In this document: positions 1-31,949 of the stretch, in pieces
How positions within the stretch are numbered: the first letter of the stretch is position 1
Layout of the letters: each line of letters opens with the position of its first letter
Source: a virus
Taxonomy: Duplodnaviria > Heunggongvirae > Uroviricota > Caudoviricetes
Strand: one strand, 5' to 3'
Length of the DNA: 31,949 bases
IMG/VR virus record: IMGVR_UViG_2563366840_000012
Location: 1-31,949 of that record
The notes under the pieces: model-generated
What the model was told of the DNA's origin: nothing
The model's database searches: none
The model's input: the letters and a program-made list of their open reading frames with translations, nothing else
Position numbers and translations under genes: made by a program

Positions 1-933
1 ATGGACAACGACAAAATTGATCAACACAGCGACGAAATTGAAGTTGAGAGCGAAGAAAAAGAGCGCGGCAAAAAAATAGAAATAGATGAAGACCGACTCC
101 CCTCCCGGGCGATGGCAATTCATGAGCATATCCGCCAGGATGGTGAAAAAGAGCTGGAACGCGACGCAATGGCGCTACTGTGGTCAGCCATTGCGGCGGG
201 TCTGTCGATGGGCGCTTCGTTACTGGCAAAAGGGATATTTCATGTCGAACTGGAAGGTGTGCCGGGCAGCTTCTTGCTGGAGAATCTCGGTTATACCTTT
301 GGTTTTATTATCGTCATTATGGCCCGCCAGCAATTATTTACCGAAAATACCGTGACTGCGGTACTACCCGTCATGCAAAAACCGACAATGAGCAACGTCG
401 GCTTACTTATACGGTTATGGGGCGTCGTGCTGCTGGGTAATATTCTCGGGACAGGTATTGCGGCGTGGGCATTTGAATATATGCCTATCTTCAATGAAGA
501 AACTCGCGATGCATTTGTCAAAATCGGCATGGATGTGATGAAGAACACCCCCAGCGAGATGTTTGCCAACGCGATCATTTCCGGCTGGCTGATCGCCACT
601 ATGGTTTGGATGTTTCCTGCAGCGGGTGCGGCAAAGATTGTGGTGATTATATTGATGACCTGGCTTATTGCCCTGGGTGACACCACCCATATCGTGGTCG
701 GTTCTGTTGAAATCCTCTATCTGGTGTTTAACGGTACGCTGCACTGGAGCGATTTCATCTGGCCCTTCGCACTACCTACTTTAGCGGGGAACATCTGCGG
801 CGGCACCTTTATCTTCGCGTTAATGAGTCATGCACAGATTCGTAACGACATGAGCAATAAGCGTAAAGCAGAAGCACGCCAAAAAGCAGAACGTGCGGAA
901 AACATTAAGAAAAATTATAAAAACCCGGCATAA
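1..933 (+). CDS. yfdC: Formate/nitrite-transporter-family inner membrane protein (YfdC-like), host gene flanking the prophage
   Basis: 310 aa ORF; hydrophobic multi-helix protein; recognised as the E. coli gene adjacent to argW; synteny with tRNA-Arg immediately downstream. Confidence 0.8.
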   Translation: MDNDKIDQHSDEIEVESEEKERGKKIEIDEDRLPSRAMAIHEHIRQDGEKELERDAMALLWSAIAAGLSMGASLLAKGIFHVELEGVPGSFLLENLGYTFGFIIVIMARQQLFTENTVTAVLPVMQKPTMSNVGLLIRLWGVVLLGNILGTGIAAWAFEYMPIFNEETRDAFVKIGMDVMKNTPSEMFANAIISGWLIATMVWMFPAAGAAKIVVIILMTWLIALGDTTHIVVGSVEILYLVFNGTLHWSDFIWPFALPTLAGNICGGTFIFALMSHAQIRNDMSNKRKAEARQKAERAENIKKNYKNPA

Positions 934-1083: not shown

Positions 1084-1244
1084 TTTATCAGTTCGCTCCC
1101 ATCCGTAGCAGTCCGCAAAATCCCCTGAATATCAAGCCTTCCGTAGATTCACAGTTCGTCATGGTTCGCGTCAGATCGTTGACAGCCGCACACCATGACG
1201 GGTAAAAAGTGGATAAAATAATTTTACCCACCGGATTTTTACCC

Positions 1245-2423
1245 ATGCTCACCGTTAAGCAGATTGAAGCAGCAAAGCCGAAAGAAAAACCATACCGCCT
1301 TCTCGATGGTAATGGCCTGTACCTTTATGTCCCTGTATCCGGGAAAAAGGTATGGCAGCTTCGCTACAAGATTGACGGTAAGGAGAAAATCCTGACCGTA
1401 GGAAAATATCCGCTTATGACTTTGCAGGAGGCAAGAGATAAAGCATGGACCGCGAGGAAAGACATCTCGGTTGGCATCGATCCGGTAAAAGCGAAAAAGG
1501 CTTCGTCTAACAACAATTCATTTAGTGCGATTTACAAGGAATGGTACGAGCACAAGAAGCAAGTCTGGTCAGTAGGCTATGCAACTGAACTTGCCAAAAT
1601 GTTTGATGACGACATTTTACCCATCATCGGCAGCCTTGAAATTCAGGATATTGAGCCGATGCAACTGTTGGAAGTAATCCGCAGATTTGAAGATCGCGGT
1701 GCAATGGAGCGAGCCAACAAAGCACGCAGAAGATGCGGTGAGGTTTTCCGTTACGCTATTGTCACCGGAAGGGCTAAATATAACCCTGCACCTGACCTTG
1801 CAGACGCCATGAAGGGATACCGCAAGAAGAACTTCCCGTTTCTTCCAGCAGACCAGATCCCCGCATTCAACAAAGCACTGGCAACATTTTCAGGAAGTAT
1901 CGTATCGCTTATTGCGACTAAAGTTTTACGCTACACCGCCCTAAGAACGAAAGAACTTCGTTCCATGCTATGGAAGAACGTCGATTTTGAAAACAGGATT
2001 ATCACCATCGACGCCAGTGTGATGAAGGGTCGCAAGATTCATGTAGTACCGATGTCAGACCAGGTAGTTGAACTTCTCACTACGCTAAGCTCAATCACCA
2101 AACCAGTATCAGAGTTTGTTTTTGCCGGGCGCAACGATAAGAAGAAGCCAATCTGCGAGAACGCGGTGCTACTTGTGATCAAACAAATCGGCTATGAGGG
2201 TCTGGAAAGCGGTCACGGATTCAGGCATGAATTCAGCACGATTATGAACGAGCACGAATGGCCTGCTGATGCTATTGAAGTGCAACTGGCACATGCCAAC
2301 GGCGGATCTGTGCGCGGGATTTACAACCATGCTCAGTATCTCGATAAACGCAGAGAAATGATGCAGTGGTGGGCGGACTGGTTAGATGATAAGGTGACAC
2401 AATGCCACCAAAGCAAATTATGA
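1245..2423 (+). CDS. intS: Tyrosine integrase, P4 family (IntS-like)
   Basis: ORF 1209..2423; ATG at 1245 (MLTVKQIEAAKPKEK...) matches the N-terminus I recall for CPS-53/KplE1 IntS; track start at 1209 is GTG; adjacent to tRNA. Confidence 0.85.
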   Translation: MLTVKQIEAAKPKEKPYRLLDGNGLYLYVPVSGKKVWQLRYKIDGKEKILTVGKYPLMTLQEARDKAWTARKDISVGIDPVKAKKASSNNNSFSAIYKEWYEHKKQVWSVGYATELAKMFDDDILPIIGSLEIQDIEPMQLLEVIRRFEDRGAMERANKARRRCGEVFRYAIVTGRAKYNPAPDLADAMKGYRKKNFPFLPADQIPAFNKALATFSGSIVSLIATKVLRYTALRTKELRSMLWKNVDFENRIITIDASVMKGRKIHVVPMSDQVVELLTTLSSITKPVSEFVFAGRNDKKKPICENAVLLVIKQIGYEGLESGHGFRHEFSTIMNEHEWPADAIEVQLAHANGGSVRGIYNHAQYLDKRREMMQWWADWLDDKVTQCHQSKL

Positions 2424-2504: not shown

Positions 2505-4361
2505 TTATACAGTATACGCAACAGAACCATCAGCTTTATAGTAGTTGCCATCTCCTCCCCACCACACCGGAATTTTGAATACTGTATCATACGAGCAAAG
2601 ACCAATCACTGCTCTGTCGTGTCGTGCTTTAATATCTGCGGTTTTACCGGAAGAAAATTCAACTACCTGATGCACAATATAATTACTATTGTTAGTCCAC
2701 TGAATAACATGATGCTCCCTGGTCCCTGCGCTAACATAAATGTCGCTATGCCAATCTGCGATAATAGAGTTTATAACACCATTGTAATACGTTGCATTTA
2801 ATTTAAAGAACCCTGTATCCTGACCAATTACACTGAGCCACGGACTGAATAATTGTTTGATATCAGGTGTAGAGTTAATAAGTTGTATCCTGAATTCAAA
2901 ACCGTTACGCACATTATTCTCATTGCACCACTCTTTAATGGCGTTACATGCCTCAAGCACAGACATTGACGGGGTTACAGTTGATAAGTATAAATACTTT
3001 GCAAGTTCAGAATCTGAACTAAGTACAATATCTGAGGTCTGAATCTTACTTGTATAGTTAACTACAGGAAATAAACTCCCATCAACAACGTTAAGAGCGC
3101 GTGTTAGTGGATAATCTTTTGTCTCAAGTGTATTAAAATAGGTGTTACTTGTTAATGCATCAACCACACCAGGTCTAAAATTAAAAACATTAGCATCCCA
3201 TATAGTAAGATGAAATCTACAGTGATTCATCATTCCTGGAGCATGCTCCATATGAACAATTTTGCTCATTTGAGGATGAGGTTGTGCTTTTAATCTTATT
3301 AAAATATCTCCAATTCCAGATGATATATTACCTGAAGATGTTGGTAAGCTTGTGTCGCGAAAATGATATGTTGAGAACCATGAAGATAAGTTTAAATCTA
3401 GTGAAGATATAAAGTTTAACTTATTTGCACCAACACCCATGGCATGAGCAACAGTAAAACCTGTTGAAGATACATCTATTTCATTAAAAATCAAAACTTC
3501 TTCATCAATTGAATTGCAATCTATAGAAAAACCATATCCTTCATCCATAACAGGAGATGTAGCAACCTCTTGTTTTACTGCTCCCTGGCGGTTAAAAACA
3601 TAGAATGGACCAAATTTTGTCTTTTGAGTTAACCTGTCAAGATTTGCTGGCGAGGTATAGTATTTTGTACCTCTAATTGTTAATGCAATACGTGTGTATC
3701 CTCCACCAGGGATATCGACAGTTATCCTCATTCCGTTTCCGATGACATCAGTAAGAACGTTTTTAAATATCAACCCATCTATGTTGCTGCGGATAATGAA
3801 CTCTACATCAGGGCCAATGTGCAACCGTTCCAGCAGTGAGACATCTATATTATGTGGTCTAGTAATTAAATACTTCCCTGAATTCACTACAAAAGAACCG
3901 TCTTTAAGCATATCATCAAGATAATCACTACACGATATATTACCAGTATTATCAGCCCCGTAAGATTTTAGATCCCCACCAATGTATTGATAACCGTATG
4001 GAGAATGAAGTTGTTCCTTTAGTTGATCAGGATCATACTTAAGAACATTAGGAAAGTAGAACTGCTGTGAACCATATGCATCATAAACAGCCATAGAATG
4101 GCCTTGTACAGTTACGAATTTGGCAATCTGTCCGTTATATACCGGATAACCAGCAGCGTTAATGATGATTGGCTGTGCAACAGGAACGTGAGAACCATCT
4201 TCGTTCTCTACATAAACCTGAATCTGGTTTTCAGGATTTACCGGGTCAGTGTCAATTTTTCCTATATAAATTTTGCCATTGGCTACGGCTTTAAAAGAAC
4301 GAGCCATAGTGAAGAGTTGCGAAGGCATGCTTACCACAACATTTGCGGTGATATCTGACAT
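2505..4361 (-). CDS. Tailspike protein: conserved P22/Sf6-type N-terminal head-binding domain, divergent receptor-binding domain
   Basis: N-terminus [60 protein letters not shown] is the P22 gp9-type head-binding domain; start ATG 4359-4361 with GGAG RBS; rest of protein does not match P22, Sf6 or HK620 tailspikes as I remember them. Confidence 0.85.
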
Positions 4362-4482
4362 TTTATTGCTCCAGACGAATGATATGATGCAACCATGATG
4401 TGATTGCATACAGAAATGGTACTATTGAGTATTTATCCAGTAGGTTACGATGCCATTCCACCCAACTGGTGAGGCATCAAGG

Positions 4483-4743
4483 ATGTACAGCAAATACGAC
4501 GAGGCGCAGTTTCACTTGAGACTTCCGCATGAACTCCACGCGAAAATTAAACAGCGCGCGAAGATGAATAACAGGTCGCTGAACTCAGAGATAATTGCAG
4601 CGATTGAAGAATCATTGGCTAAACAAAGCTCTGCATCAGTTTACATTGACGATGCAGAGCGTATGGCAGAACAACAATCTGATATGGTTAAGAAAATTGT
4701 CTTTGATACGCTCAAAGAGCTATATAAAAAAGACAGCAGCTAA
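4483..4743 (+). CDS. mnt: Mnt-like ribbon-helix-helix repressor (orphan; no arc/ant nearby)
   Basis: Alignable by eye to P22 Mnt (..NNRSLNSEI.. and DAERMAEQQSDMVKKIVFDTLKELYKK versus P22 DAERLADEQSELVKKMVFDTLKDLYKK); divergent from tailspike; start could be 4450. Confidence 0.7.
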   Translation: MYSKYDEAQFHLRLPHELHAKIKQRAKMNNRSLNSEIIAAIEESLAKQSSASVYIDDAERMAEQQSDMVKKIVFDTLKELYKKDSS

Positions 4744-4832
4744 CTATCAGTTACGGAGGATTTATGCAAAGAGATATGCTGAATATTGCGTTCTACATAT
4801 TTGGTTTTTGCACGTTCCTGGTGTTTGCGAAG

Positions 4833-6830
4833 CTATTCTGACAACGCATCAGACTTGGCACCTTGAGTCAGGGCGTTAATGGCCTTTTGCGCCTGCTGCA
4901 TGGCTTTCTCAAACGCTGTTGATCCGCGTGGGGTGTTTGCCATTCGGAGCATTGCATTTCTGAATGGCTCGCTCTCATAGGCGCGAGTAAGAAGTCCGTA
5001 GCTTACCGCTGCGCCAGTTGTCGCCGGGTTCATTGCCGTCCCATATCCGATAATGAACGGGATGGTTTGCTGCCCTGTTGGTGTTGTTACTGCTGCTTTT
5101 GCAGCCTGCTGCGTGGATTGCAGGTAGTTTTTCAATCCTTTCAGATAAGCGGCTTCCTGACCTTTAAATGTGATGCCAGTCTGGTTTTGCAGGACATTAA
5201 GCTGCCGAAGGAACTGGTCAGGGGATCCGCCAGATTTCTCCATCGCCTTTCCAATGATGCCATTGCGCATTTGCGCCCTGCCAACACGACCAACTGAGTT
5301 ATACAGAGTCTTAATTTCCGATTTGTTCTTGCTGAATAGCATGTTGTTGACAACTTCCGGCGTCAGATCGCCTTTCATGAGAACATTCTTCAGCCTGGTA
5401 TTCTTTAGTTTCGCTGCTTCGTCAGCATAGACGGCATTGGCCTGCTGATATTTACGGAGAGTATCGTTGCCAAGATTCTGACCAATGGCACCATTGATAT
5501 CGTCGGTAATTGCCTTGTAAACGCGCTGAATAGCAGCATCGGAACGGTTTGGTAACACTGGTCGCTCACCCTTCACGTCCATTCTGAACTGGCTGCGCAG
5601 ATCGCTTAATTGCTTCAAATCCAGATTTACCGGACCATCAGGACCAGCATTGCGAACAAGCTCATCACGATAGGACTGAAGTTTTGAAATAGTCTCGTTA
5701 TCAGCAACCTTACCAAGCTTCTGCAGGTTAGATATTTCTGTATCAATCTGCTGAATTGCTCGCGCAGGCTGAATGTTTACTCCAGCCATAGCATTCTGAA
5801 CCTGCTCCAGTCGATTACCGGCGGCACGACGAATTCCTGATGTTTTCGCTTTAAGGCTGTCAATAACAACCGCTGGATCATACTCACCGAATTTATCAGC
5901 AAATCTCTGCACCAACTGGCTTCTCGCTTCCTGTTGCGTTGCTCTCATTCCGCTTGTGCCAGCCAGAGGGATATTTTCTGCTGTAGTCTGCGCCATTTTT
6001 CCGACGCGGGAAGTTGGTTGTAACAGGTCTGTGGTGTGCAGAGGAACTCCTTCACGCTCTGCAAATCTGATAGCCTGCTGCGCTTCTGGAGCGATAGCAC
6101 CACGAACACCACGATAAGCAGCACCTATTCCACGTCCGGCAGCGTTAATAGCACCGCCAGCCAGCACACCAACGCCTAAATCGGTGGCGAGTGCTTCCGC
6201 ATCATCTTTCGCACTGTTTGCAGCAAGTGATCCAACTGCGTTTTCTGCTAGAAGGCGAGTTGCCCCCTGAGCAATTCGACCAGCAAGTGTTGGTGCCTGT
6301 GCTGCCGCTCTCTCAACGCCAGCAGGAGTGAGGTAAGGCAATGCTTCAGCAAATACCCTTCCCTCTGTCGTTTGTGGAGTCAGCGCGCCTTGCTGAAGGC
6401 CAAAGTCCTGCTCTAATCCCTGCGTTGTTACACGTGGCGCTGGTTGATATGTACCATCGCCAATGCCGAGTTTACCGCCAGCCCAAGCCGCCGCGCTTGT
6501 TACAGCATCGGCAACTGATGCAGGTATGTTTGCAACGTTCACGCCAGCCTGCACCAGTCCGCGACCAGTCTCTTTTACTGCTTCGCCAAGATCAGACATA
6601 AATCCACTTTGCTGTGGTTGTTGCTGTGCTACTGATTGCTGTGTCTCCACTGGCTGCACAGATGGCAATGGATAGGCAGCATAGAAAGCTTGCTTAGCCT
6701 GCTCTGCATTTTCTCCGGCTTGCGGGGCCACGACTTCATTGAAGTATTGCTCCTGAGCCTGCGCTTTTTGTTCTGGTGCTAACGCCTGATACTGTGGAGA
6801 GGCGATAACATCTTTCCATGCTTTAGCCAT
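4833..6830 (-). CDS. DNA ejection/transfer protein, P22 gp16-like
   Basis: 665 aa, Gly/Ala/Gln-rich low-complexity protein in the gp16 position of P22-like gene order (last of the 7-20-16 trio before the tailspike). Confidence 0.7.
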   Translation of the reverse strand: MAKAWKDVIASPQYQALAPEQKAQAQEQYFNEVVAPQAGENAEQAKQAFYAAYPLPSVQPVETQQSVAQQQPQQSGFMSDLGEAVKETGRGLVQAGVNVANIPASVADAVTSAAAWAGGKLGIGDGTYQPAPRVTTQGLEQDFGLQQGALTPQTTEGRVFAEALPYLTPAGVERAAAQAPTLAGRIAQGATRLLAENAVGSLAANSAKDDAEALATDLGVGVLAGGAINAAGRGIGAAYRGVRGAIAPEAQQAIRFAEREGVPLHTTDLLQPTSRVGKMAQTTAENIPLAGTSGMRATQQEARSQLVQRFADKFGEYDPAVVIDSLKAKTSGIRRAAGNRLEQVQNAMAGVNIQPARAIQQIDTEISNLQKLGKVADNETISKLQSYRDELVRNAGPDGPVNLDLKQLSDLRSQFRMDVKGERPVLPNRSDAAIQRVYKAITDDINGAIGQNLGNDTLRKYQQANAVYADEAAKLKNTRLKNVLMKGDLTPEVVNNMLFSKNKSEIKTLYNSVGRVGRAQMRNGIIGKAMEKSGGSPDQFLRQLNVLQNQTGITFKGQEAAYLKGLKNYLQSTQQAAKAAVTTPTGQQTIPFIIGYGTAMNPATTGAAVSYGLLTRAYESEPFRNAMLRMANTPRGSTAFEKAMQQAQKAINALTQGAKSDALSE

Positions 6831-8131
6831 TAATCACCCCATAGTGAAGAAAAGTTACTGCCAGTAGTAGATTGTTGCCCTGGCATATTCTGCACCGGCT
6901 CCTGATAATCAAACTGTTTTTTAACAGTGCTCAACTTGCTTTCAAGCTGATTTCTAATCTTTCCGATAGAGTCACGAAAAGCCTTTTCACTCATTTTGGG
7001 ACTTAGGGCACCAACCGCATCGGATAATTTTTTACCCTCAGCATCTGAAAGAGCGCCCATACCCTTCAGGGACTGCACCATAGGAAGGAATGTTTGAGCT
7101 TTAAAGGTGTCGAGCCTTGCTTCAAAGTTAGCCGCATCAGAGCCAGGAACTGTCGGAAACGCTGAGCGAATTCCTACTGCTTTTGAAAGGCCGGGGCTTT
7201 GCTCTATCTCGTTGAGAGAATCAAGCGCGGTACTGAACGTATCAACAGCACCCTGAGCGGCGGCCTGCCTGTCAGCGCGGGCTATGTCAGCCTTTTGCCG
7301 AACATCTGCCTGTTTCTGTTTTAGCTCTTCAAGCTTTAACTGATTGCTTTCTCTGGCTATCTGTCTGTCCAGAGCCTTTTCTTGTAATTCTGCTCTTTGT
7401 ATTTCTCGGGAAAGAGCAGCATTCTGTGCGCTGATGTTCTGTCCACGTATCTGGATGTTCTGACCTCGTGCTGTTAGCGCCTCGCCAGCCTGATTGCTGC
7501 GGATTGTCTCTGCAAGTTTTCCGCGATCAATCTCACGCCCAACGATTCTGTCTTGCGCCTGAAAATATTGTTCTGGACCAAGTGCAGCCATTCCAAGGTG
7601 ATCAACAAACTCTGTGAAACCTTGTGGATTTTGCTGATACATTTTCGCCACATCCAGAGGGTCTACTCCGGCACGAGTAAGCTCAGATGAGTTGTTCTGC
7701 AACCATGACATCATGGCTTCTGGAGATGAAGCTGCCAGTCTGGCACTTGCTGCCAGTGTGCCGACAGTGGAACGCTGGTCTTCATCGACAAATTTCATGC
7801 CGTTTCTTACAGCGTCAAACTGCTCAGGATACTGTGATGCCAGTTTTCGCATTGCATCGCGGTCACCAGATGTATATGCATCAGCATAAGCCTGTTGAAA
7901 CTCTTGCTGTCGCTTCTGCTGATCCATCTGCTTATACATATCCATGACAGATGAAATGCCCTGCAAAGCCTGCAAGCCAACGTTATTACGTCCTGAACGC
8001 TCCATCTCGTTATTCTGTCGAATGTATGCAAGCGTGGAGTCTGCATCACTTGCTCTTGGAGCGTTGGAGTTCATGCCGCCTAACCCGGCAAGAAGCGCGC
8101 CTGAATTACCAGCCTGTTGCCATGTAGCCAA
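6830..8131 (-). CDS. DNA ejection/transfer protein, P22 gp20-like
   Basis: 433 aa; position and coiled-coil-rich composition consistent with gp20; 1-nt TAATG overlap with downstream gene. Confidence 0.7.
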   Translation of the reverse strand: MATWQQAGNSGALLAGLGGMNSNAPRASDADSTLAYIRQNNEMERSGRNNVGLQALQGISSVMDMYKQMDQQKRQQEFQQAYADAYTSGDRDAMRKLASQYPEQFDAVRNGMKFVDEDQRSTVGTLAASARLAASSPEAMMSWLQNNSSELTRAGVDPLDVAKMYQQNPQGFTEFVDHLGMAALGPEQYFQAQDRIVGREIDRGKLAETIRSNQAGEALTARGQNIQIRGQNISAQNAALSREIQRAELQEKALDRQIARESNQLKLEELKQKQADVRQKADIARADRQAAAQGAVDTFSTALDSLNEIEQSPGLSKAVGIRSAFPTVPGSDAANFEARLDTFKAQTFLPMVQSLKGMGALSDAEGKKLSDAVGALSPKMSEKAFRDSIGKIRNQLESKLSTVKKQFDYQEPVQNMPGQQSTTGSNFSSLWGD

Positions 8132-8143
8132 GAGACACCTCCA

Positions 8144-8803
8144 TTAAAAAAGTGAACCAAGAAGACCGACGCCAGCACCAATTGCTGTACCCCAACCAGG
8201 CATGATTGCAGTACCTGCAGCTGCACCTGCTGCCGCTCCACCCAAGGCGCTCTGAAATCCTGATGGTTTATTCGCATTAGCCGCAGATGCTGCCGCCTGC
8301 TGTTGATACAATTGGCTGACGTTGTTAGCGTAGTTCTGTCCGGCATTTGCCTGACCTGTAAGAGCGCCAAGGCCGATATTTGCCAGATTGTTGTAGTTGT
8401 TCATCTGACCTGACAGCCAGTTTTGACCGAGTGTAGGTGCGATTGCTGCTAACTGGTTTCCTGTTGCTGTAGAGCCTAATCCACCCGTTGCCTCTGCTGC
8501 TGCCAGACTCTGGTAACGCGCCTGTCCTGCAAGGTCTTTGTACTGCTGGGAGTTGTAATACTGGTTAAGCGCCTGACCTTGCCCCTGAAGAGAGGAAAGA
8601 TTTTGCAACTGTGATACGTACTGCTGAGCGAGTGGCGTGAACGGTGCAAGGTTCTGCATGTTCGTCTGCCACATTTCACGTTGCAGTTCGATGCCCTTTT
8701 CAGTTGCGCGTGCCTGGGCTTTAGATCCGGAGTCGCTGCCGCCTTTCATATACCCATTCATGGGAAGCAATTTATTCTTGAAGCTTTCGCTAAGTACTAA
8801 CAT
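8144..8803 (-). CDS. Ejection protein, P22 gp7-like
   Basis: 219 aa Gly/Ala/Gln-rich protein in the gp7 position. Confidence 0.6.
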   Translation of the reverse strand: MLVLSESFKNKLLPMNGYMKGGSDSGSKAQARATEKGIELQREMWQTNMQNLAPFTPLAQQYVSQLQNLSSLQGQGQALNQYYNSQQYKDLAGQARYQSLAAAEATGGLGSTATGNQLAAIAPTLGQNWLSGQMNNYNNLANIGLGALTGQANAGQNYANNVSQLYQQQAAASAANANKPSGFQSALGGAAAGAAAGTAIMPGWGTAIGAGVGLLGSLF

Positions 8804-12204: not shown

Positions 12205-13458
12205 TTACTGCCCGGCAATAACGATGCCCGTATATTCAGGAACCAGTACAGAGCAACCGTACAGAGTGGTGAAACGCGCAGTGGTTACGCCTTTGATGTG
12301 GTCGAAGGCGTAAGACATGATCAGCGTAGCGCCCTGCTCGGTGGTTGCTGTCATTACCTGTGGACCCTGACCAGTCGGGAACGCCAGTTTGCCGTACATC
12401 AGTTCAACAGAACCATCAGCCCAGAACAGGTTAGCCGGTGCGGAATTTTTGTTGAGAATGGTGATTGCTGCGCTACTTGCCGCATTAGCATCAACGTTTG
12501 CATATGGACGGCTGGCGACATCCGCGTTGTCAGGCGGCAGAATTTTCGGGGAGATAGTTACTGTCGTTCCGCTTACTGCCAGAACGCGGAATACCTGCGG
12601 CTGCCCGGTGGTATCTTTGGTGATCTGGTGTACAGAATTCACCCCTGCAATGGTAAACGCATCGCCAACCTGCAAACCTTCAGTAGATACCGTAATGGTC
12701 CCCTGTCGGTTATCAACTGGCATATCGTTAGCATCTTTCGCTTCAACTTTGTGCGCAGGTGCTGCTGCCAGCGTAATGGAAGTTGCTGTCCCTTTCGGAA
12801 CACGACCAGAAATATCAGTCTTGTAGCTATCAAAGGAAGCAACCGGAGGGATCTGCGCTTTTTCGTATGCTGTCAGGGTTGCGCCCTGAGCGTAGGCACG
12901 GTGACCAAGCTCGCCAGCAAGGTCTTTGTAGTTGAAGGGGTTCCAGAAAGAGCGACGGTTGATACCCTGCGGTACACCAATCGCCGTCATGGTGGCATCA
13001 ATACCTGCCGCACAGTTCCACAAATCACGGCCCTGTGAACCAGTGGTTGAGTCAGCCATCGTGATCACGTTAGTAGCACGCTGCGTAACCATGGAAATCA
13101 GGTCAGAGTCAATCTGTGCAGCAAGGCGCATACCTGCGGCGCGACCAGCTTCAGTTTTATGTTCCGGGTCACGCATTTCACGCGCATCCAGAGTGTACAG
13201 AATGTTTTTCGGTTCCTTGAACACAGAAGGAACAAGGCGCTGAACCAGTGCTGTTGGCGTTTTGCCGCTGAGGTCTAGGCCTTCCTCAATGTTCATGTGG
13301 TAATGCTGCGGACGATACAGAACATCACCTGCTCGCTGCATTGCTGTATCACCGGGACGGAATTTTTTAGCGTTACGGGAAACTACGCAGGCGGCCTCAA
13401 AGCCTTCAACGTAGTTTTCGAACATGATTTCAAGGTCTTTTGCTAATTGGTTAGCCAT
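12205..13458 (-). CDS. Major capsid (coat) protein, P22/Sf6 gp5-like
   Basis: 417 aa ORF between scaffold and gp4; size and position as in P22-like phages. Confidence 0.8.
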   Translation of the reverse strand: MANQLAKDLEIMFENYVEGFEAACVVSRNAKKFRPGDTAMQRAGDVLYRPQHYHMNIEEGLDLSGKTPTALVQRLVPSVFKEPKNILYTLDAREMRDPEHKTEAGRAAGMRLAAQIDSDLISMVTQRATNVITMADSTTGSQGRDLWNCAAGIDATMTAIGVPQGINRRSFWNPFNYKDLAGELGHRAYAQGATLTAYEKAQIPPVASFDSYKTDISGRVPKGTATSITLAAAPAHKVEAKDANDMPVDNRQGTITVSTEGLQVGDAFTIAGVNSVHQITKDTTGQPQVFRVLAVSGTTVTISPKILPPDNADVASRPYANVDANAASSAAITILNKNSAPANLFWADGSVELMYGKLAFPTGQGPQVMTATTEQGATLIMSYAFDHIKGVTTARFTTLYGCSVLVPEYTGIVIAGQ

Positions 13459-14460: not shown

Positions 14461-16659
14461 TTACTGCTGTGGTTGTTGCTGAGTTGATTTTTGCAGGATG
14501 CCGCTGATGTCCATGTGCTGCGCATGGCCCTGTGCCTGACTTTTCAGGACAAGCTCTGCATCAGCACGGGCATTGTCTCCTTGCTGTTGCTGGAACTGTC
14601 CGAGCAGTTTCAGAGCCTCGCGGATATCAGATTTCTGCTGGCTATCGGCAGATGCGAGGATTTTCACAACATTTGCCGCTGCAACCTGAGCATCAGTCTG
14701 TGCCTGGAATGCTTTAACCTGAATGGCTGCCTGTTCGTTCTGCGCTTTCTGCAATTCAGCCTGACCAGCAAGAAGCTGACCTTGCGCAGCAACCATAGCC
14801 GGATCTGGCTGACTGGCCTGTTGTTGTTTCGCCTGCTCAACCATTTGCTGTTCTTCTGGTGTTCTCGGCTTAATAACGCCAGACAGAAGCAACTGATTGC
14901 GGTTGTATTCTTTAAGGTCGTCCATCCCTTCGCCGTCCATATTGTCGAGAATCATCGACGATACAAGGTCATGCTTCGGCGTTCCTGGCGGGATAAGTGC
15001 CAGCATGGAAAGCAACGACTTAACCGTTGCATCACGGCGAGTAGCGAACGACTGACCGACATCGACAGTCACTTCATAGTTACCCTGCGAAAGGTCGTTA
15101 AGCGCGACAACCTTCCCTGTCTGACGGTCAACCACTTCACCAGTCATCAGCGCCACGTCATCGCTGCCATCCTCATTAACGATGCGCATTGGCGTATCGC
15201 TGCCATAGACTTCACGAGCCATAGAAAGCCACACGACGCCAGCACGGCGCATGGATTTAGCCATGTTGTCCATGTAGATATAGGACTGCGTGTCCATCCG
15301 GTTAAAGATGCTATCAACGGTATCGGTAGCGACGTTGCTCGGCATGTTCTCAAGCTGCGACGCACCTGTAATTTGCTGAATAGCCGTTCCGGTGTACTGC
15401 AATAGCCCAGCAAGAGCAGGAGGCATTTGTGTCGGAGGTGTCCAGCCAGCAACCTGAGCCTCTGAAATGACCGTTCCGTTTTTGTCCTTCTTGCTGGTCA
15501 TGGGAAGAACTGCAGGTCTTTTCTTATTCCTCTCTGCCCAGTGATTCATTAATGGACCGGGAATGAAATCAACATCCACGATAGGAATGCCATCGCCGCC
15601 AGCCTGAGTAGCGTTATCTGCAATCATGGAAACCATCAGGTTCTCAAGACGCTGTGCATCCATCGCTTTTGCTGCGTGGCCTTCGATTCGCTCCTGATTA
15701 TCAACAAATGAACGACGCCCATATACCGGGATGAGAGGAATATGTTCGCCCGGAATACGCTTCGGTTCTTCCAGCCATTCAGCGCCAGACAGAAGACCGC
15801 AATAAACTCGGCGTTTCTTCACCGTTCGCTCGCCAATCAGTTCGAATGCACCATCGGTCAGCTCGTCGACAATATCTTTGATTTGCTCTTCATCATAGAT
15901 TGCCGTTTCTCCGCTGACAGGGTTACGCCATGCTGTGAGCTTCACCTTCTCTATGCGGACTTCGTAGTAGCGTCCAACATAGATGGCGTCAGGCGTTGAC
16001 CAGTCATACTGAGTACCAGTGTCATCACGAGAAAGGCTTGCCGCGATGGAATCAGGGTATTCAGCCTCGAACGCTTTAGGCGTCATGGAGAACATTTCCA
16101 TAGCCCACATGGCATCAGAGCGGTCATATTGCTTGCTGTCCTGATCGAAGAAGACGCATGTCGCCGGGTCGTAAACAGGAAGAAGGCTGATGCGTCGCTG
16201 CTCGTTACTCGGATCCATTTCATCTTCGTAATCAGCACACATGCGGAAACAACCGAATCCGCCCGTTACAGCATCATCAAATGCGTTATCACACGCTTCG
16301 CCACCGGATGTTTCCTGATAATCAGCGCGGAATTTGCCGTTCATCTTTTCGGCTAACGCTTCCGATGCCTTGTCATCCTTCGGCCTGAATTTAACGCTGA
16401 TGCGATTCTGTCGATACTCGCCAATGATGCGATCACATTCACGGGCAATCTTATTCAGTTCAAAGCGCGGGTAATGCTCAAACCTGCCTTCATCAAATGA
16501 GTAACCAGCGTTTGTGCTGCCTTCCCACTGTGCGCCGGACACCCGGACGAAACGTTGAGCCTCAATAATCTGCTTACGCATATCCTGCGTTGCTGACCAG
16601 GCATTATCAAAGTTGCACAGCACCTTGCGGTGCCAGTCAGTCATCTTTTTTTCTGCCAT
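14461..16659 (-). CDS. Portal protein
   Basis: 732 aa (P22 portal ~725 aa), immediately downstream of TerL; Gln-rich C-terminal barrel-like tail. Confidence 0.85.
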   Translation of the reverse strand: MAEKKMTDWHRKVLCNFDNAWSATQDMRKQIIEAQRFVRVSGAQWEGSTNAGYSFDEGRFEHYPRFELNKIARECDRIIGEYRQNRISVKFRPKDDKASEALAEKMNGKFRADYQETSGGEACDNAFDDAVTGGFGCFRMCADYEDEMDPSNEQRRISLLPVYDPATCVFFDQDSKQYDRSDAMWAMEMFSMTPKAFEAEYPDSIAASLSRDDTGTQYDWSTPDAIYVGRYYEVRIEKVKLTAWRNPVSGETAIYDEEQIKDIVDELTDGAFELIGERTVKKRRVYCGLLSGAEWLEEPKRIPGEHIPLIPVYGRRSFVDNQERIEGHAAKAMDAQRLENLMVSMIADNATQAGGDGIPIVDVDFIPGPLMNHWAERNKKRPAVLPMTSKKDKNGTVISEAQVAGWTPPTQMPPALAGLLQYTGTAIQQITGASQLENMPSNVATDTVDSIFNRMDTQSYIYMDNMAKSMRRAGVVWLSMAREVYGSDTPMRIVNEDGSDDVALMTGEVVDRQTGKVVALNDLSQGNYEVTVDVGQSFATRRDATVKSLLSMLALIPPGTPKHDLVSSMILDNMDGEGMDDLKEYNRNQLLLSGVIKPRTPEEQQMVEQAKQQQASQPDPAMVAAQGQLLAGQAELQKAQNEQAAIQVKAFQAQTDAQVAAANVVKILASADSQQKSDIREALKLLGQFQQQQGDNARADAELVLKSQAQGHAQHMDISGILQKSTQQQPQQ

Positions 16660-19709: not shown

Positions 19710-20228
19710 TCACTTTGGCAGTCCGGGGATCGATATTTGCGCCTGCTGCTCAAGCCTTTCGATTCTTGCTATGAGTTGCGGTTTTTTGATCCTGCCCCAG
19801 CGGTTCAGCAAGCGTCCTGACATACTGGCAACATCCTTTTCCTTCATGAACTCCAGCATTAACTCGTTGTGCTCTCTTTGGTATGAGTGAGCCATCTCCA
19901 TCAGCCTGTCACGCATCCAATTAAATGCTTTGATAAACGCCTCTTTGATGGCGGCAGCTTTTTTGCCGGTAAACGACATGATGATGTACATCGCGCCGTC
20001 TTTGGAAATTTCATATTCAACATACTGATTACCCTTGTGTTCATAGGTAACCCGCGAAAAGTTGCTGGTTAGAAATTCATCCGAACAGTCTAGCTTTTCG
20101 ATTTTCTGAATGATGTGGTGATGCTGCTTGTCGAAGTAAGCTGCTACCTTGCGGGAGGTTGTGATCACGCGATCACCAGAAACAACCACCATGTCCCGGA
20201 AATCGAGATTAGCCAATTGATGATTCAT
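19710..20228 (-). CDS. rha: Rha-family phage regulatory protein
   Basis: N-terminus MNHQLANLDFRDMVVVSGDRVITTSRKVAAYFDKQHHHIIQKIEKL is typical of Rha; ATG at 20226-20228. Confidence 0.7.
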   Translation of the reverse strand: MNHQLANLDFRDMVVVSGDRVITTSRKVAAYFDKQHHHIIQKIEKLDCSDEFLTSNFSRVTYEHKGNQYVEYEISKDGAMYIIMSFTGKKAAAIKEAFIKAFNWMRDRLMEMAHSYQREHNELMLEFMKEKDVASMSGRLLNRWGRIKKPQLIARIERLEQQAQISIPGLPK

Positions 20229-20370
20229 AGCGTCTTTACCTTTTAGAAAGTGAGCCTGTCTCACAGAAAAGCCGCCCGAGAGAGGTCGCCACCTATAACG
20301 GCATTTCTCAGGCTCGCTTACTGAAAGGCTCTCGTTAATATGCGCGTGAGATGCGCTGTGAAATTCAGAT

Positions 20371-27782: not shown

Positions 27783-29141
<1,359 letters not shown>

Positions 29142-29191
29142 TCCCCACCTCAATCTCGATAACCAAAAAACAAACTATTTTCCGTTTAAAA

Positions 29192-29265
29192 ACAATGGAG
29201 TTTGTTTTTCATGCCCCTTTTTTACAATATTTCTTGTTTACAACATACAATCTTTCTTGTAATTT
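29192..29265 (+). promoter_or_regulatory. 434-type left operators (three sites) and pL
   Basis: ACAA-N6-TTGT sites at 29192-29205, 29224-29237 and 29247-29260; candidate -35 TTTACA (29237-29242) and -10 TAATTT (29260-29265) with 17-bp spacing. Confidence 0.75.
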
Positions 29266-29306
29266 TAAGCCATCAGCAGGACGCACTGACCACCATTGAA
29301 GGTGAT

Positions 29307-29336
29307 GCTCTTAAAAATTAAGCCCTGAAGAAGGGC
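29307..29336 (+). promoter_or_regulatory. nutL (boxA GCTCTTAA, boxB GCCCTGAAGAAGGGC)
   Basis: Exact lambda nutL boxB at 29322-29336 preceded by boxA-like TGCTCTTAAAAATTAA. Confidence 0.85.
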
Positions 29337-29494
29337 AGCATTCAAAGCAGAAGGCTTTGGGGTGTGTGATACGAAACGAAGCATTGGCCGGAAGTGCGAA
29401 TCCGGATTAGCTGCAAATGAGCCAATCGTGGGGTGTTTTCGTTCAGGACTACGACTCACACACACCACCAAAGCTAACTGACAAGAGAATCCAG

Positions 29495-29818
29495 ATGGAT
29501 GCACAAACACGCCGCCGCGAACGTCGCGCAGAGAAACAGGCTCAATGGAAAGCAGCAAATCCCCTGTTGGTTGGGGTAAGCGCAAAACCAGTTAACCGCC
29601 CTATTCTCTCGCTGAATCGCAAACCGAAATCACGAGTAGAAAGCGCACTGAATCCGATAGACCTTACGGTGCTGGCTGAATACCACGAACAGATTGAAAG
29701 CAACCTGCAACGTATTGAGCGCAAGAATCATCGAGTTTGGTATAGCAAGCCAAGTGAGTTCGGTATAACTTGTCAAGGAAGACAAAAGGTTAAAGGGAAA
29801 TCCATTCCATTGGCATGA
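29495..29818 (+). CDS. N: Antiterminator N
   Basis: MDAQTRRRERRAEKQAQWKAANPLLVGVSAKPVNRPILSLNRKPKSRVESALNPIDLTVLAEYHEQIESNLQRIERKN... matches lambda N, arginine-rich motif present; track ORF begins upstream at 29417. Confidence 0.95.
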   Translation: MDAQTRRRERRAEKQAQWKAANPLLVGVSAKPVNRPILSLNRKPKSRVESALNPIDLTVLAEYHEQIESNLQRIERKNHRVWYSKPSEFGITCQGRQKVKGKSIPLA

Positions 29819-29826
29819 GGTACGTA

Positions 29827-30696
29827 ATGAAGAAAATTGATTACAAGTCCATACCAAAACCAATAGACTCAGCATCAGAACGAAAAAAACACAAAAAAGA
29901 GGCTGAAAAATTAGCAAATTATATCAGTTTTATTAGAAACAATGCTCACGGCGATGGCGACAGGAAGTTGCTTTCAGATGCCCGGACCCAAGCGTTCAGT
30001 ATACTTCGTAAGCAGATGCAATATCGTCTTCATCCAGGCTACATAATTGAAATTCGCCCGACTGAAAGACAATTGTTCTTATTAAACTCTGTCTTTGACT
30101 TTGTAAACGTAGTTGGAGATCTTATCGACAGGTCTGTAGATAAGGCTCCTGATACAAATAGTTTTCTTCTAACAAATAAAGAATACTTATATGGTAAATT
30201 TGGTATAAACGGATGGCAAAAATATGTACGATTCTTACGTGCATTCGTTGATGCGTATAAAAATTCCGACATGATTTATACATATTTGCCTGGTGGTGAT
30301 AATTGTACGCTTTCGGCAGACAATAGAATATTCATACCTATACTTGGTCTTGGGCTGATTAATGCAGTAAATGAAAGAGATGTTATAATTGTTAAGCAGT
30401 GGCGAAAGCATGAGGGATATAGATATCTGCCATGCTTTGATATATTAAAAATACAGAATAAATTCTATGTAAAAATTAAATATAAAGAAGATGTTTTCTT
30501 CCTCAGAAAAAACAAAGATCTTTTACAAGAACTTTCTGGGACAATAGATGTCATCGTAGGTTCTAGGTTTATAAAAGAACTGAAAGAAAGCAGGTCTTTC
30601 TCTCGTGTAGAGATAAGCGAGTCAGAGTTATGGGGTATATCAAATAATCCTGTAAACCACGCTCACCAACGAAATCCAAACAAAAAGTGGTCATAA
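29827..30696 (+). CDS. Hypothetical AT-rich protein (~289 aa) fused downstream of N in the ral/sieB slot
   Basis: ATG 29827 with GAGG RBS 6 nt upstream (alternative ATG 29815 overlapping the N stop); markedly AT-rich; no family recognised. Confidence 0.6.
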   Translation: MKKIDYKSIPKPIDSASERKKHKKEAEKLANYISFIRNNAHGDGDRKLLSDARTQAFSILRKQMQYRLHPGYIIEIRPTERQLFLLNSVFDFVNVVGDLIDRSVDKAPDTNSFLLTNKEYLYGKFGINGWQKYVRFLRAFVDAYKNSDMIYTYLPGGDNCTLSADNRIFIPILGLGLINAVNERDVIIVKQWRKHEGYRYLPCFDILKIQNKFYVKIKYKEDVFFLRKNKDLLQELSGTIDVIVGSRFIKELKESRSFSRVEISESELWGISNNPVNHAHQRNPNKKWS

Positions 30697-30720
30697 CCCG
30701 CTCAGGCGGGTTTCATTTTC
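30697..30720 (+). terminator. Intrinsic terminator immediately after the AT-rich ORF
   Basis: CCCGCTCAGGCGGG hairpin followed by TTTCATTTT starting 1 nt after the stop codon. Confidence 0.65.
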
Positions 30721-30838
30721 ACGCAAACAACAGAATAAACACTGCACTGTGTATTCATTCCAACGAGTGAATACACGGAGCAATGTCGCTCGTAACTAAA
30801 CAGGAGTCGACTTGTTCTGATTATTGGAAATCTTCTTT

Positions 30839-30866
30839 GCCCTCCAGTGTGAGGGCGATTTTTTAT
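30839..30866 (+). terminator. Intrinsic terminator upstream of ea10
   Basis: GCCCTC-CAGTGT-GAGGGC hairpin followed by GATTTTTTA. Confidence 0.6.
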
Positions 30867-30884
30867 CTGTGAGGATATGAACAG

Positions 30885-31253
30885 ATGTCAAACATCAAAA
30901 AATACATCATTGATTACGACTGGAAAGCATCAATAGAAATTGAAATCGACCATGACGTAATGACAGAGGAAAAACTTCACCAGATTAATAATTTCTGGTC
31001 AGACTCTGAATACCGACTCAATAAACACGGCTCTTTATTAAATGCTGTATTAATCATGCTGGCGCAACATGCTCTGCTTATAGCAATTTCGAAAGACTTA
31101 AATGCATATGGTGTTGTTTGTGAGTTCGACTGGGATGATGGAAATGGTCAGGAAGGATGGCCTCCAATGGATGGTAGTGAAGGAATAAGAATTACCGATA
31201 TCGATACATCAGGAATATTTGATTCAGATGATATGACTATCAAGGCCGCCTGA
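30885..31253 (+). CDS. ea10: Ea10-like protein
   Basis: 122 aa, same length and position as lambda Ea10; acidic C-terminus; sequence matches my recollection of Ea10. Confidence 0.75.
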   Translation: MSNIKKYIIDYDWKASIEIEIDHDVMTEEKLHQINNFWSDSEYRLNKHGSLLNAVLIMLAQHALLIAISKDLNAYGVVCEFDWDDGNGQEGWPPMDGSEGIRITDIDTSGIFDSDDMTIKAA

Positions 31254-31276
31254 GTGCGGTTTTACCGCATACCAAT

Positions 31277-31299
31277 AACGCTTCACTCGAGGCGTTTTT
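31277..31299 (+). terminator. Possible terminator or RNA hairpin between ea10 and cIII
   Basis: AACGCTTC-ACTC-GAGGCGTT stem (one G-U pair) followed by TTTTCGTT. Confidence 0.4.
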
Positions 31300-31325
31300 C
31301 GTTATGTATAAATAAGGAGCACACC

Positions 31326-31490
31326 ATGCAATATGCCATTGCAGGGTGGCCTGTTGCTGGCTGCCCTTCCGAATCTTTACTTGAACGAATCACCCGTAAA
31401 TTACGTGACGGATGGAAACGCCTTATCGACATACTTAATCAGCCAGGAGTCCCAAAGAATGGATCAAACACTTATGGCTATCCAGACTAA
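31326..31490 (+). CDS. cIII: cIII (FtsH inhibitor)
   Basis: 54 aa [54 protein letters not shown] matches lambda cIII; AAGGAG RBS; track ORF is N-terminally overextended. Confidence 0.95.
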   Translation: MQYAIAGWPVAGCPSESLLERITRKLRDGWKRLIDILNQPGVPKNGSNTYGYPD

Positions 31491-31602
31491 ATTCACTATC
31501 GCCACTTTTATTGGCGATGAAAAGATGTTTCGTGAAGCCGTCGACGCTTATAAAAAATGGATATTAATACTGAAACTGAGATCAAGCAAAAGCATTCACT
31601 AA
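31459..31602 (+). CDS. kil: Kil (host cell-division inhibitor)
   Basis: 47 aa [47 protein letters not shown] matches lambda Kil; overlaps the cIII 3' end. Confidence 0.9.
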
Positions 31603-31949
31603 CCCCCTTTCCTGTTTTCCTAATCAGCCCGGCATTTCGCGGGCGATATTTTCACAGCTATTTCAGGAGTTCAGCCATGAACGCTTATTACATTCAGGAT
31701 CGTCTTGAGGCTCAGAGCTGGGCGCGTCACTACCAGCAGATCGCCCGTGAAGAGAAAGAGGCAGAACTGGCAGACGACATGGAAAAAGGCCTGCCCCAGC
31801 ACCTGTTTGAATCGCTATGCATCGATCATTTGCAACGCCACGGGGCCAGCAAAAAAGCCATTACCCGTGCGTTTGATGACGATGTTGAGTTTCAGGAGCG
31901 CATGGCAGAACACATCCGGTACATGGTTGAAACCATTGCTCACCACCAG
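31560..31949 (+). CDS. gam: Gam (RecBCD inhibitor), 3'-truncated by the window end
   Basis: ATG 31560 ([18 protein letters not shown]...) and internal ATG 31677 ([38 protein letters not shown]...) match lambda GamL/GamS; no stop before the window end. Confidence 0.9.

Follow-up and report, generated by a model that had tools for sequence, protein, structure and literature searches.

What does an Mnt-type repressor do in a prophage from which its antirepressor partner has disappeared? The question is raised by a stretch of 31,949 nucleotides of tailed-phage DNA (IMG/VR record IMGVR_UViG_2563366840_000012, positions 1 to 31,949), referred to here as the window, in which a gene for an Mnt-like protein is transcribed divergently from the tailspike gene. 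In the immI region of P22 the order is mnt-Omnt/Pant-arc-sar-ant; the mnt gene of the window occupies the same place, between gene 16 and gene 9 and opposite to the late operon, whereas arc, ant, sar and Pant are absent and mnt directly faces the tailspike gene across a spacer of 121 bp. An earlier note on this DNA, made from the sequence alone, had described the divergent arrangement correctly and had suggested that the orphan repressor either regulates the tailspike region in the lysogen or confers cross-immunity against P22-like phages carrying ant. The comparative analysis reported here leaves both of these proposals unsupported, although neither is refuted. We lean, with a little more belief than doubt, towards another answer, namely that the protein is a functional repressor controlling its own rightward transcript.

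Judged from its sequence, the 86-residue product is a Mnt-family repressor. It matches PDB entry 1MNT over residues 6-79 (E=3.4e-19) and 1QEY, the tetramerisation helix, at E=1.7e-8, and both parts of such a protein can be recognized at the sequence level: an N-terminal ribbon-helix-helix DNA-binding domain (Pfam Arc, PF03869, E=7.5e-15) and a C-terminal coiled-coil tetramerisation helix (Repressor_Mnt, PF11423, E=3.4e-14, residues 57-82). The family assignment made earlier thus stands, whereas the resemblance to P22 Mnt, described there as close, is moderate. Identity to P22 Mnt is 48.8%, best in the C-terminal helix and poorest in the N-terminal recognition strand, where P22 Mnt reads RDDPHFNFRMP and the window protein YDEAQFHLRLP, and three of the four DNA-contacting positions of this strand differ. 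P22 Arc has its fold in common with the window protein, whose QFHLR resembles the QFNLR of Arc, but Arc is a 53-residue dimer with a different operator and lacks the tetramerisation helix that the window protein possesses. Three observations back the start codon at 4483: the Shine-Dalgarno sequence GAGG at 4471-4474, the start chosen by PGAP in a genome of 99% identity (ET665), and a relative (locus L010) in which a stop codon interrupts the longer upstream frame.

The partners of Mnt are indeed missing, as had been claimed. When P22 Arc, Ant, SieA and orf59a and the KilA and Rha proteins of JEP4 served as tblastn queries, only noise came back across the whole 31.9-kb window, and between 4000 and 5200 there was no match to sar RNA at E<=1, nor to an Rfam family of any kind. 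The window stops short of the early-left end of the prophage, and these absences cover the 31.9 kb seen. None of the hallmarks of immI (arc and ant under Pant, sar, and a strong leftward promoter overlapped by an operator) was found in the window. The only Rha-family gene (19710-20264, minus strand) was considered as a candidate antirepressor and set aside, as it sits at the usual rha position of P22 without a nearby Mnt-type operator. This gene, located between those for lysis and for packaging, encodes Phage_pRha and ORF11CD3 domains, and its copy in BTP1 bears the annotation ‘anti-repressor’.

The loss of the canonical arc-ant target, rightly noted before, is by sequence comparison a trait of the whole lineage and not of the window alone. 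Among the matches listed, 125 loci bear the operator described below and 117 of them have a readable left flank that contains the tailspike gene; an intact arc or ant between operator and tailspike was found in none of the 117, and in 106 no more than 140 bp separate the operator from the tailspike start, with two types of leader. Ten relatives carry an insert of 0.55 kb between operator and tailspike, which was suspected to be ant; this was rejected, since the insert encodes, on the other strand, an HNH-AP2 homing endonuclease. In loci L011 and L128 this insert (about 60-650 bp to the left of the operator) is flanked by duplicated first codons of the tailspike gene together with its ribosome-binding site. 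One further locus, L102, holds at 414-743 a truncated P22-type ant (residues 191-300, the last 110 codons) and the ant terminator, joined directly to an operator of the window's type. Lying between operator and tailspike, these remains are a deletion scar that ties the orphan layout to a full immI region, and they argue that the layout arose by deletion or recombination.

If the repressor has a site of its own, where is it? Mnt repressors are marked by a two-fold symmetric operator of roughly 17 bp beside their own promoter. When upstream regions are aligned on the motif ATTGAGA, a palindrome appears at the same place in every Mnt relative. P22 Omnt, AGGTCCACCGTGGACCT, ends one base ahead of ATTGAGA, the -35 element of Pmnt. 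At the equivalent position in the window, directly 5' of TATTGAG, stands ATACAGAAATGGTAC (4408-4422); P22 Omnt itself is absent from the spacer, as had been stated before, and Oarc, also tried there, is absent as well. Across four pairings the palindrome changes together with the recognition strand of the protein: PHFNFRMP is accompanied by GGTCCACCGTGGACC (P22, epsilon34, Pluralibacter and Pectobacterium), PQFNLRLP by AGACCAC(N)GTGGTCT (Gally and ST160), PQFNFRMP by ATATCACCGTGATAT (Phlomobacter), and AQFHLRL, the class of the window, by the consensus (A/G)TACC-N5-GGTAC. The core TACC-N5-GGTA was seen only with the AQFHLRL strand, in five genera (Escherichia, Salmonella, Citrobacter, Buttiauxella and Serratia). 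Both half-sites are retained, with at most one mismatch each, in the loci that were found through the protein alone, comprising five of five genome-contig loci of the class (contigs of Escherichia, Buttiauxella, Serratia and Citrobacter) and five of five phage records (including IME10, Sf101, JEP4 and VSe13). The pairing holds down to 62-67% protein identity although the surrounding spacer diverges. Because it occupies the position of Omnt and co-varies with the recognition strand, 4408-4422 is likely the Mnt operator. The assignment supplies a concrete predicted operator for a second or third natural specificity class of Mnt, and such pairs, taken from nature, are of use in the old problem of a recognition code in ribbon-helix-helix proteins.

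Among IMG/VR loci found by protein, 66 of 77 carry ATACCGAAATGGTAC. The copy in the window is imperfect, departing from it in the left half-site by A4412 (TACA for TACC), a change shared by one of the 77 loci otherwise, and it could be an operator-down variant. The window holds no second copy of TACC-N5-GGTA; a remote candidate at 12687, ATACCGTAATGGTCC, has two mismatches and is compatible with chance, and additional TACC-N5-GGTA sites in relatives were dismissed as lying inside the gene-16 coding sequence and being confined to certain alleles. A Citrobacter copy of mnt (locus L014, 3501-3752) is interrupted by a stop at codon 5, and in its operator GGTA has become AGTA; this copy may be decaying.

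The earlier note had instead drawn attention to an imperfect palindrome, ATGCAA-N11-TTGCAT, as the possible Mnt site. An imperfect palindrome does exist, in a slightly different place and extent: it spans 4387-4409 and not 4388-4410, and its arms are 9 bp and not 6 bp long, ATGCAACCA (4387-4395) and TGATTGCAT (4401-4409), with one mismatch. By our own arithmetic some 0.1-0.3 such repeats are expected by chance in 121 bp, so comparative data alone can give it meaning, and these data point to RNA. Among 13 distinct natural variants, pairing is kept in 97.4% of cells in the sense of the tailspike mRNA (minus) and in 87.2% in the opposite sense (plus). Three stem positions vary, and only in the minus-sense RNA is their pairing preserved: the ‘mismatch’ is a U·G pair that becomes U-A or C-G in other variants, the second pair is C-G or U·G, and the third changes on both sides, from G-C to U-A, whereas the plus-sense reading of the same variants yields C·A mismatches. 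Owing to the close relationship among the sequences, the statistics of this strand-specific pairing are modest (8 of 500 shuffles). Independently, when single sequences were folded, all P22-like leader types examined showed a hairpin some 15-25 nt ahead of the Shine-Dalgarno sequence of the tailspike gene, with differing sequences: the stem is CCGUAGCCAUGCUGCGG in P22, epsilon34, Gally and JEP4, CCGGACA...UGUCCGG in Sf6 and CCGCAG...CUGUGG in Citrobacter, and equivalent places were located in loci L003, L005, L007, L008 and L014. Moreover, VSe13 and JEP4 share the Mnt recognition strand of the window and lack the palindrome, and Sf6, which has no mnt, nevertheless has GATGCAACC...ATTGCA in its place. 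Minus-sense pairing, hairpins in all leader types and this phage pattern together argue that 4387-4409 is most likely the local version of a tailspike-leader stem-loop, not an Mnt site, and that 4408-4422 is the better operator candidate. The stem-loop is not followed by a run of U and is thus not an intrinsic terminator. It overlaps recombination joints between mosaic modules. A search of the window for further copies of the palindrome gave one match with one mismatch, at 15010, which was considered as a remote Mnt target and is compatible with chance.

Which transcript the operator would control depends on the promoters of the divergent region. A promoter tool reported a single plus-strand site (CTGACA-17-AATGAT, 4355-4383) and no minus-strand site in 4250-4950. 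Candidates were also scored with a heuristic sigma-70 matrix that serves as a guide only; on this scale P22 Pant scores 15.7 and P22 Pmnt 13.6, while the best score per 165-nt stretch of background has a median of 7.1 and a 90th percentile of 10.0. The best leftward candidate able to give a tailspike mRNA, ATGGCA-17-AATACT, occupies the positions homologous to the -10 and -35 of Pant and reaches 7.7, and leftward scores in relatives are at most about 7, within background. Rightward, the positional homologue of Pmnt is a weak match to consensus (TTGAGT-15-TACGAT) that reads TTGTTG-17-TACGAT in loci of the JEP4/VSe13 type. An alternative candidate for mnt is an extended -10 whose TATGAT is invariant among type-A variants; if transcription started from it, or from the site at 4355-4383, the operator would fall at about +13 to +27. 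Closer to the gene, an inverted repeat (GATGCC-N18-GGCATC) encloses the mnt Shine-Dalgarno sequence and is kept across the class; a transcript beginning upstream of 4449 could have its ribosome-binding site masked by the repeat, but the variants of the repeat are too few to separate RNA structure from plain sequence conservation. It has an inner CACC/GGTG pair, and the inner stems differ in Buttiauxella.

These data suggest a scheme in which the Mnt of the window would be a working tetrameric ribbon-helix-helix repressor of a distinct specificity class, with its own operator at 4408-4422. Since there is no antirepressor left to repress, its own control region would be the most likely cis target. 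By binding there, Mnt would set the level of a rightward transcript expressed from the prophage that would comprise mnt and a 25-codon membrane-peptide gene and extend beyond them, in antisense orientation, into the 3' end of the gp16-like gene, while the tailspike mRNA with its leader stem-loop would be made by read-through from the late operon. The mnt-only morons of the literature and the mnt-orf59a unit of P22 are precedents. Several points weigh against autoregulation. No promoter in the spacer scores above background, and the Pmnt homologue has a spacer of 15 nt. Vershon and co-workers are said to have found in 1987 that an operator just upstream of the -35 element stimulates P22 Pmnt and does not repress it. 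The rare half-site change A4412 may weaken binding, and the 120 loci that were found via an operator search are invalid as evidence for operator conservation. Finally, autoregulation accounts for the control of mnt, not for its retention.

The distance from the mnt stop to the end of the gp16-like gene had been put at about 90 bp and is 89 bp; the gap is not empty and holds most of an unannotated open reading frame of 25 codons, which starts 21 nt past the mnt stop, overlaps the gp16-like stop by 9 nt and encodes MQRDMLNIAFYIFGFCTFLVFAKLF. The frame is intact in 38 of 38 distinct sequences and in three upstream contexts, namely after mnt, after a Gally-13-like gene, and alone (Sf6). Homologues of 23 residues share this position and strand in BTP1, MG40, g341c, ST64T, ST104, L, SPN9CC, Klebsiella phiKp_30 and E. 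coli HF4s, all preceded by GAGGnTTTATG; further copies are found in NC_042346 (L221; 14014-14082, minus strand) and in L222 (1501-1569). The family follows the consensus M-x-R-D-L-L-N-x-A-F-x-I-F-G...LF, and the peptides of the window and BTP1 match at E=1e-6 by BLASTP in a single comparison. Homologues differ by many synonymous codons (AGA/CGT/CGA, GAT/GAC, CTG/TTA/TTG, ATA/ATC/ATT, GGT/GGC/GGA), as coding sequences are expected to do. In a collection of 15 billion proteins the peptide is missing, and it is unannotated in every record examined; together with the leader hairpin, this tiny membrane-peptide gene is a conserved feature of the region between gene 16 and the tailspike gene that annotation misses. 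Between mnt and the small frame there is neither a terminator-like nor a promoter-like site, which argues that the two are probably co-transcribed in the window; the first plus-strand terminator-like site, at 5109-5123, lies inside the gp16-like gene. An internal promoter within mnt was also sought for the small frame, and nothing there rose above background.

The place of this gene is that of a published immunity transcript. Owen et al. 2020 described STnc6030, a highly expressed transcript of the BTP1 prophage (D23580 403942-404727), a 786-nt clone of which renders cells immune to BTP1; in the escape mutants the gene-16 homologue is altered non-synonymously at 404041-404078. STnc6030 was interpreted as a non-coding antisense RNA, with only reading frames longer than 60 residues excluded and with the largest RNA on Northern blots at about 500 nt. 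When the published primers are mapped on the BTP1 genome, the 23-residue frame with its Shine-Dalgarno sequence falls at nt 406-475 of the clone and the gene-16 stop at nt 466, whereas the escape region falls at nt 649-686 (about codons 583-595 of the gene-16 homologue), beyond the reach of RNAs of about 500 nt. Leavitt et al. 2024 likewise located escape from SieA, an exclusion protein of the inner membrane, in the C-terminal parts of gp16 and gp20. The exclusion seen in BTP1 could thus stem from the peptide, acting on the ejection-protein conduit, instead of or besides the antisense RNA. STnc6030 and the rightward transcript predicted for the window share strand and place, and both include the small frame and extend into the 3' end of the gene-16 homologue; BTP1, however, has no mnt, and the STnc6030 promoter, which lies inside the tailspike gene of BTP1, has no conserved counterpart in the window. 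That the orphan Mnt regulates a two-gene superinfection-exclusion operon, mnt-orf25, with the 23-25-residue membrane peptide as effector, is a tentative and rather unlikely extension of the autoregulatory scheme. Were it true, the peptide gene could change the reading of a published phage-immunity RNA. No paper proposing the peptide as the STnc6030 effector was found in the searchable literature, in which STnc6030 is mentioned by a 2025 review on small RNAs derived from phages.

Control of the tailspike gene, the first of the two functions proposed earlier, would have Mnt at 4408-4422 block a leftward promoter, or read-through, into the tailspike gene in the lysogen. The geometry invites this, as the centre of the operator lies 54 bp upstream of the tailspike ATG, the short distance is kept in 106 of the 117 loci with either leader type, and a transcript starting at the operator would bear the conserved hairpin near its 5' end. 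There is also precedent for transcription in this direction: in P22, transcripts from Pant extend into gene 9, the amount of tailspike is, in a speculation of Villafane et al. (PMC2629481), modulated by Mnt and Arc, and late-strand antirepressor operons of the JEP4, L036 and L077 type point through mnt towards the tailspike gene. Nevertheless, such regulation requires a leftward promoter, and none above background is present in the window, so that the proposal is left unsupported. The minus strand of 4250-4950 holds no promoter-like site, and the positions homologous to the -10 and -35 of Pant have degenerated to the 7.7 given above, against 15.7 for P22 Pant, and to at most 5.2 in type-B relatives. 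Nor would read-through be an easy target, a bound repressor being in general a poor block to antiterminated late transcription. Tailspike control is therefore unlikely.

Cross-immunity would have the prophage Mnt act in trans on superinfecting ant phages that carry the same operator, preventing antirepressor-driven induction. P22 Mnt acts in this way against superinfecting P22, and a role of this kind would explain why a protein without a cis target is retained. It requires ant phages under TACC-N5-GGTA, and none was found among the matches listed: arc-ant stands under this operator in none of the 117 operator-bearing loci, nor in phage records with a Mnt of the AQFHLRL class. As cross-immunity would also leave the retention of the resident operator unexplained, we regard it as very unlikely. 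That Mnt and its site are functionless leftovers of a deleted immI region, an option raised for phage L by Zaworski et al. (PMC8022706) and consistent with the scar in L102, the degenerate Pant positions, the Citrobacter copy L014 and the A4412 variant of the window itself, is likewise very improbable, since simple decay is contradicted by a reading frame intact across hundreds of distinct sequences, by an invariant recognition strand, and by half-sites that persist while the flanking intergenic DNA diverges, and since a second orphan class (ST160, Gally) also retains a perfect palindrome.

The features of the locus and its surroundings are collected in Table 1. Beyond the integrase gene the window is a P22-like (Lederbergvirus) prophage with its late genes on the minus strand, gp7 being followed by the head, lysis, nin, replication and immunity genes. 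The tRNA-Arg(CCT) and integrase genes directly adjoin the 3' end of the tailspike gene (1009-2504), with a gap of 81 bp and, unlike in Sf6, Sf101, ET665 and P22, without O-antigen conversion genes between integrase and tailspike. E. coli 2017-19-1CC, which is 100% identical to window positions 28000-31949, was tried as a guide to the rest of the prophage and rejected, as it is a lambda-like phage with only the immunity region in common.

Table 1. Features of the mnt locus and neighbouring genes in the 31,949-nt window
Feature	Positions	Strand	Remarks
yfdC-like transporter gene	1-933		start of window
tRNA-Arg(CCT)	1009-1083
integrase gene	1209-2423		reads away from tRNA-Arg(CCT)
tailspike gene	2505-4361	-	P22 gp9-type head-binding domain; Pfam Head_binding, 5e-67
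divergent control region, tailspike/mnt	4362-4482		121 bp
candidate mnt promoter (alternative)	4380-4388	+	extended -10, TGaTATGAT; putative
tailspike mRNA leader hairpin (probable)	4387-4409	-	palindrome of the earlier note; 9-bp stem including one G·U, 5-nt loop
predicted Mnt operator	4408-4422		ATACAGAAATGGTAC; Omnt-equivalent position
positional homologue of P22 Pmnt	4425-4451	+	TTGAGT-15-TACGAT; weak consensus match, putative
inverted repeat	4449-4478	+	GATGCC-N18-GGCATC; encloses mnt Shine-Dalgarno sequence
mnt-like gene	4483-4743	+	86 aa
unannotated 25-codon reading frame	4764-4841	+	Shine-Dalgarno GGAGG, 4755-4759
gp16-like ejection protein gene	4833-6830	-	homologue of Sf6 gp13 and BTP1 STMMW_03891
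gp20	6830-8131	-	late gene
gp7	8144-8803	-	late gene

The locus is an ordinary and widespread one, and the orphan mnt layout is a common variant that has been described before. Identity is 97% to phage IME10 over the 801 bp around mnt and 98% to Shigella phage Sf101 over the mnt part; of 5426 complete E. coli genomes, 142 carry the full stretch, and the exact Mnt protein occurs on at least 1000 contigs, with 681 members in its 90% cluster. IME10 and Sf101 carry a near-identical module (97-99%) with the consensus operator, that is, C where the window has A4412. The mnt gene is unannotated in IME10, goes unmentioned in the Sf101 paper, and is called ‘partition protein ATPase’ in the Sf101 record. 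RefSeq gives this product name to a number of Mnt genes, including that of P22 itself (NC_027398, NC_002371, NC_011976 and others), and it is a propagated annotation error.

An mnt gene facing the tailspike gene with no arc or ant between them is also found in Salmonella phages VSe13, ST160 and L and in E. coli phages JEP4 and Gally, whereas P22, which carries a mnt-orf59a unit, and epsilon34 have the full mnt-arc-sar-ant set, and Sf6 has the same flanks with mnt absent. Villafane et al. 2008 (PMC2629481) noted that the ‘ant morons’ of ST64T, ST104 and Para1 consist of mnt only plus one unknown gene, and Zaworski et al. 2020 (PMC8022706) found the same in phage L and asked whether mnt is a remnant or newly functional; the locus in the window is an mnt-only moron in this sense. 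The morons of ST64T, ST104, ST160, SE1 and L share this reduced architecture, with mnt and its operator 135 bp from the tailspike start and arc and ant absent, and they likewise carry a small hydrophobic reading frame at the 3' flank of gene 16. They differ in having the PQFNLRLP strand, the AGACCAC-GTGGTCT operator, and a terminator after mnt with an opposite-strand orf62, whereas in the window the small frame comes straight after mnt. To these descriptions the present analysis adds the operator assignment, the rereading of the palindrome as an RNA hairpin, the negative evidence on both functions proposed earlier, and the peptide gene. In JEP4 (L006) and in loci L036, L077 and L013 a second, complete antirepressor module stands to the right of mnt, with its own ribbon-helix-helix or C2-like repressor, an Arc-like gene, and genes of the Bro-N, KilA or P22-like Ant types, so that phages of the JEP4 type have two or three repressors of the Arc/Mnt fold in one region.

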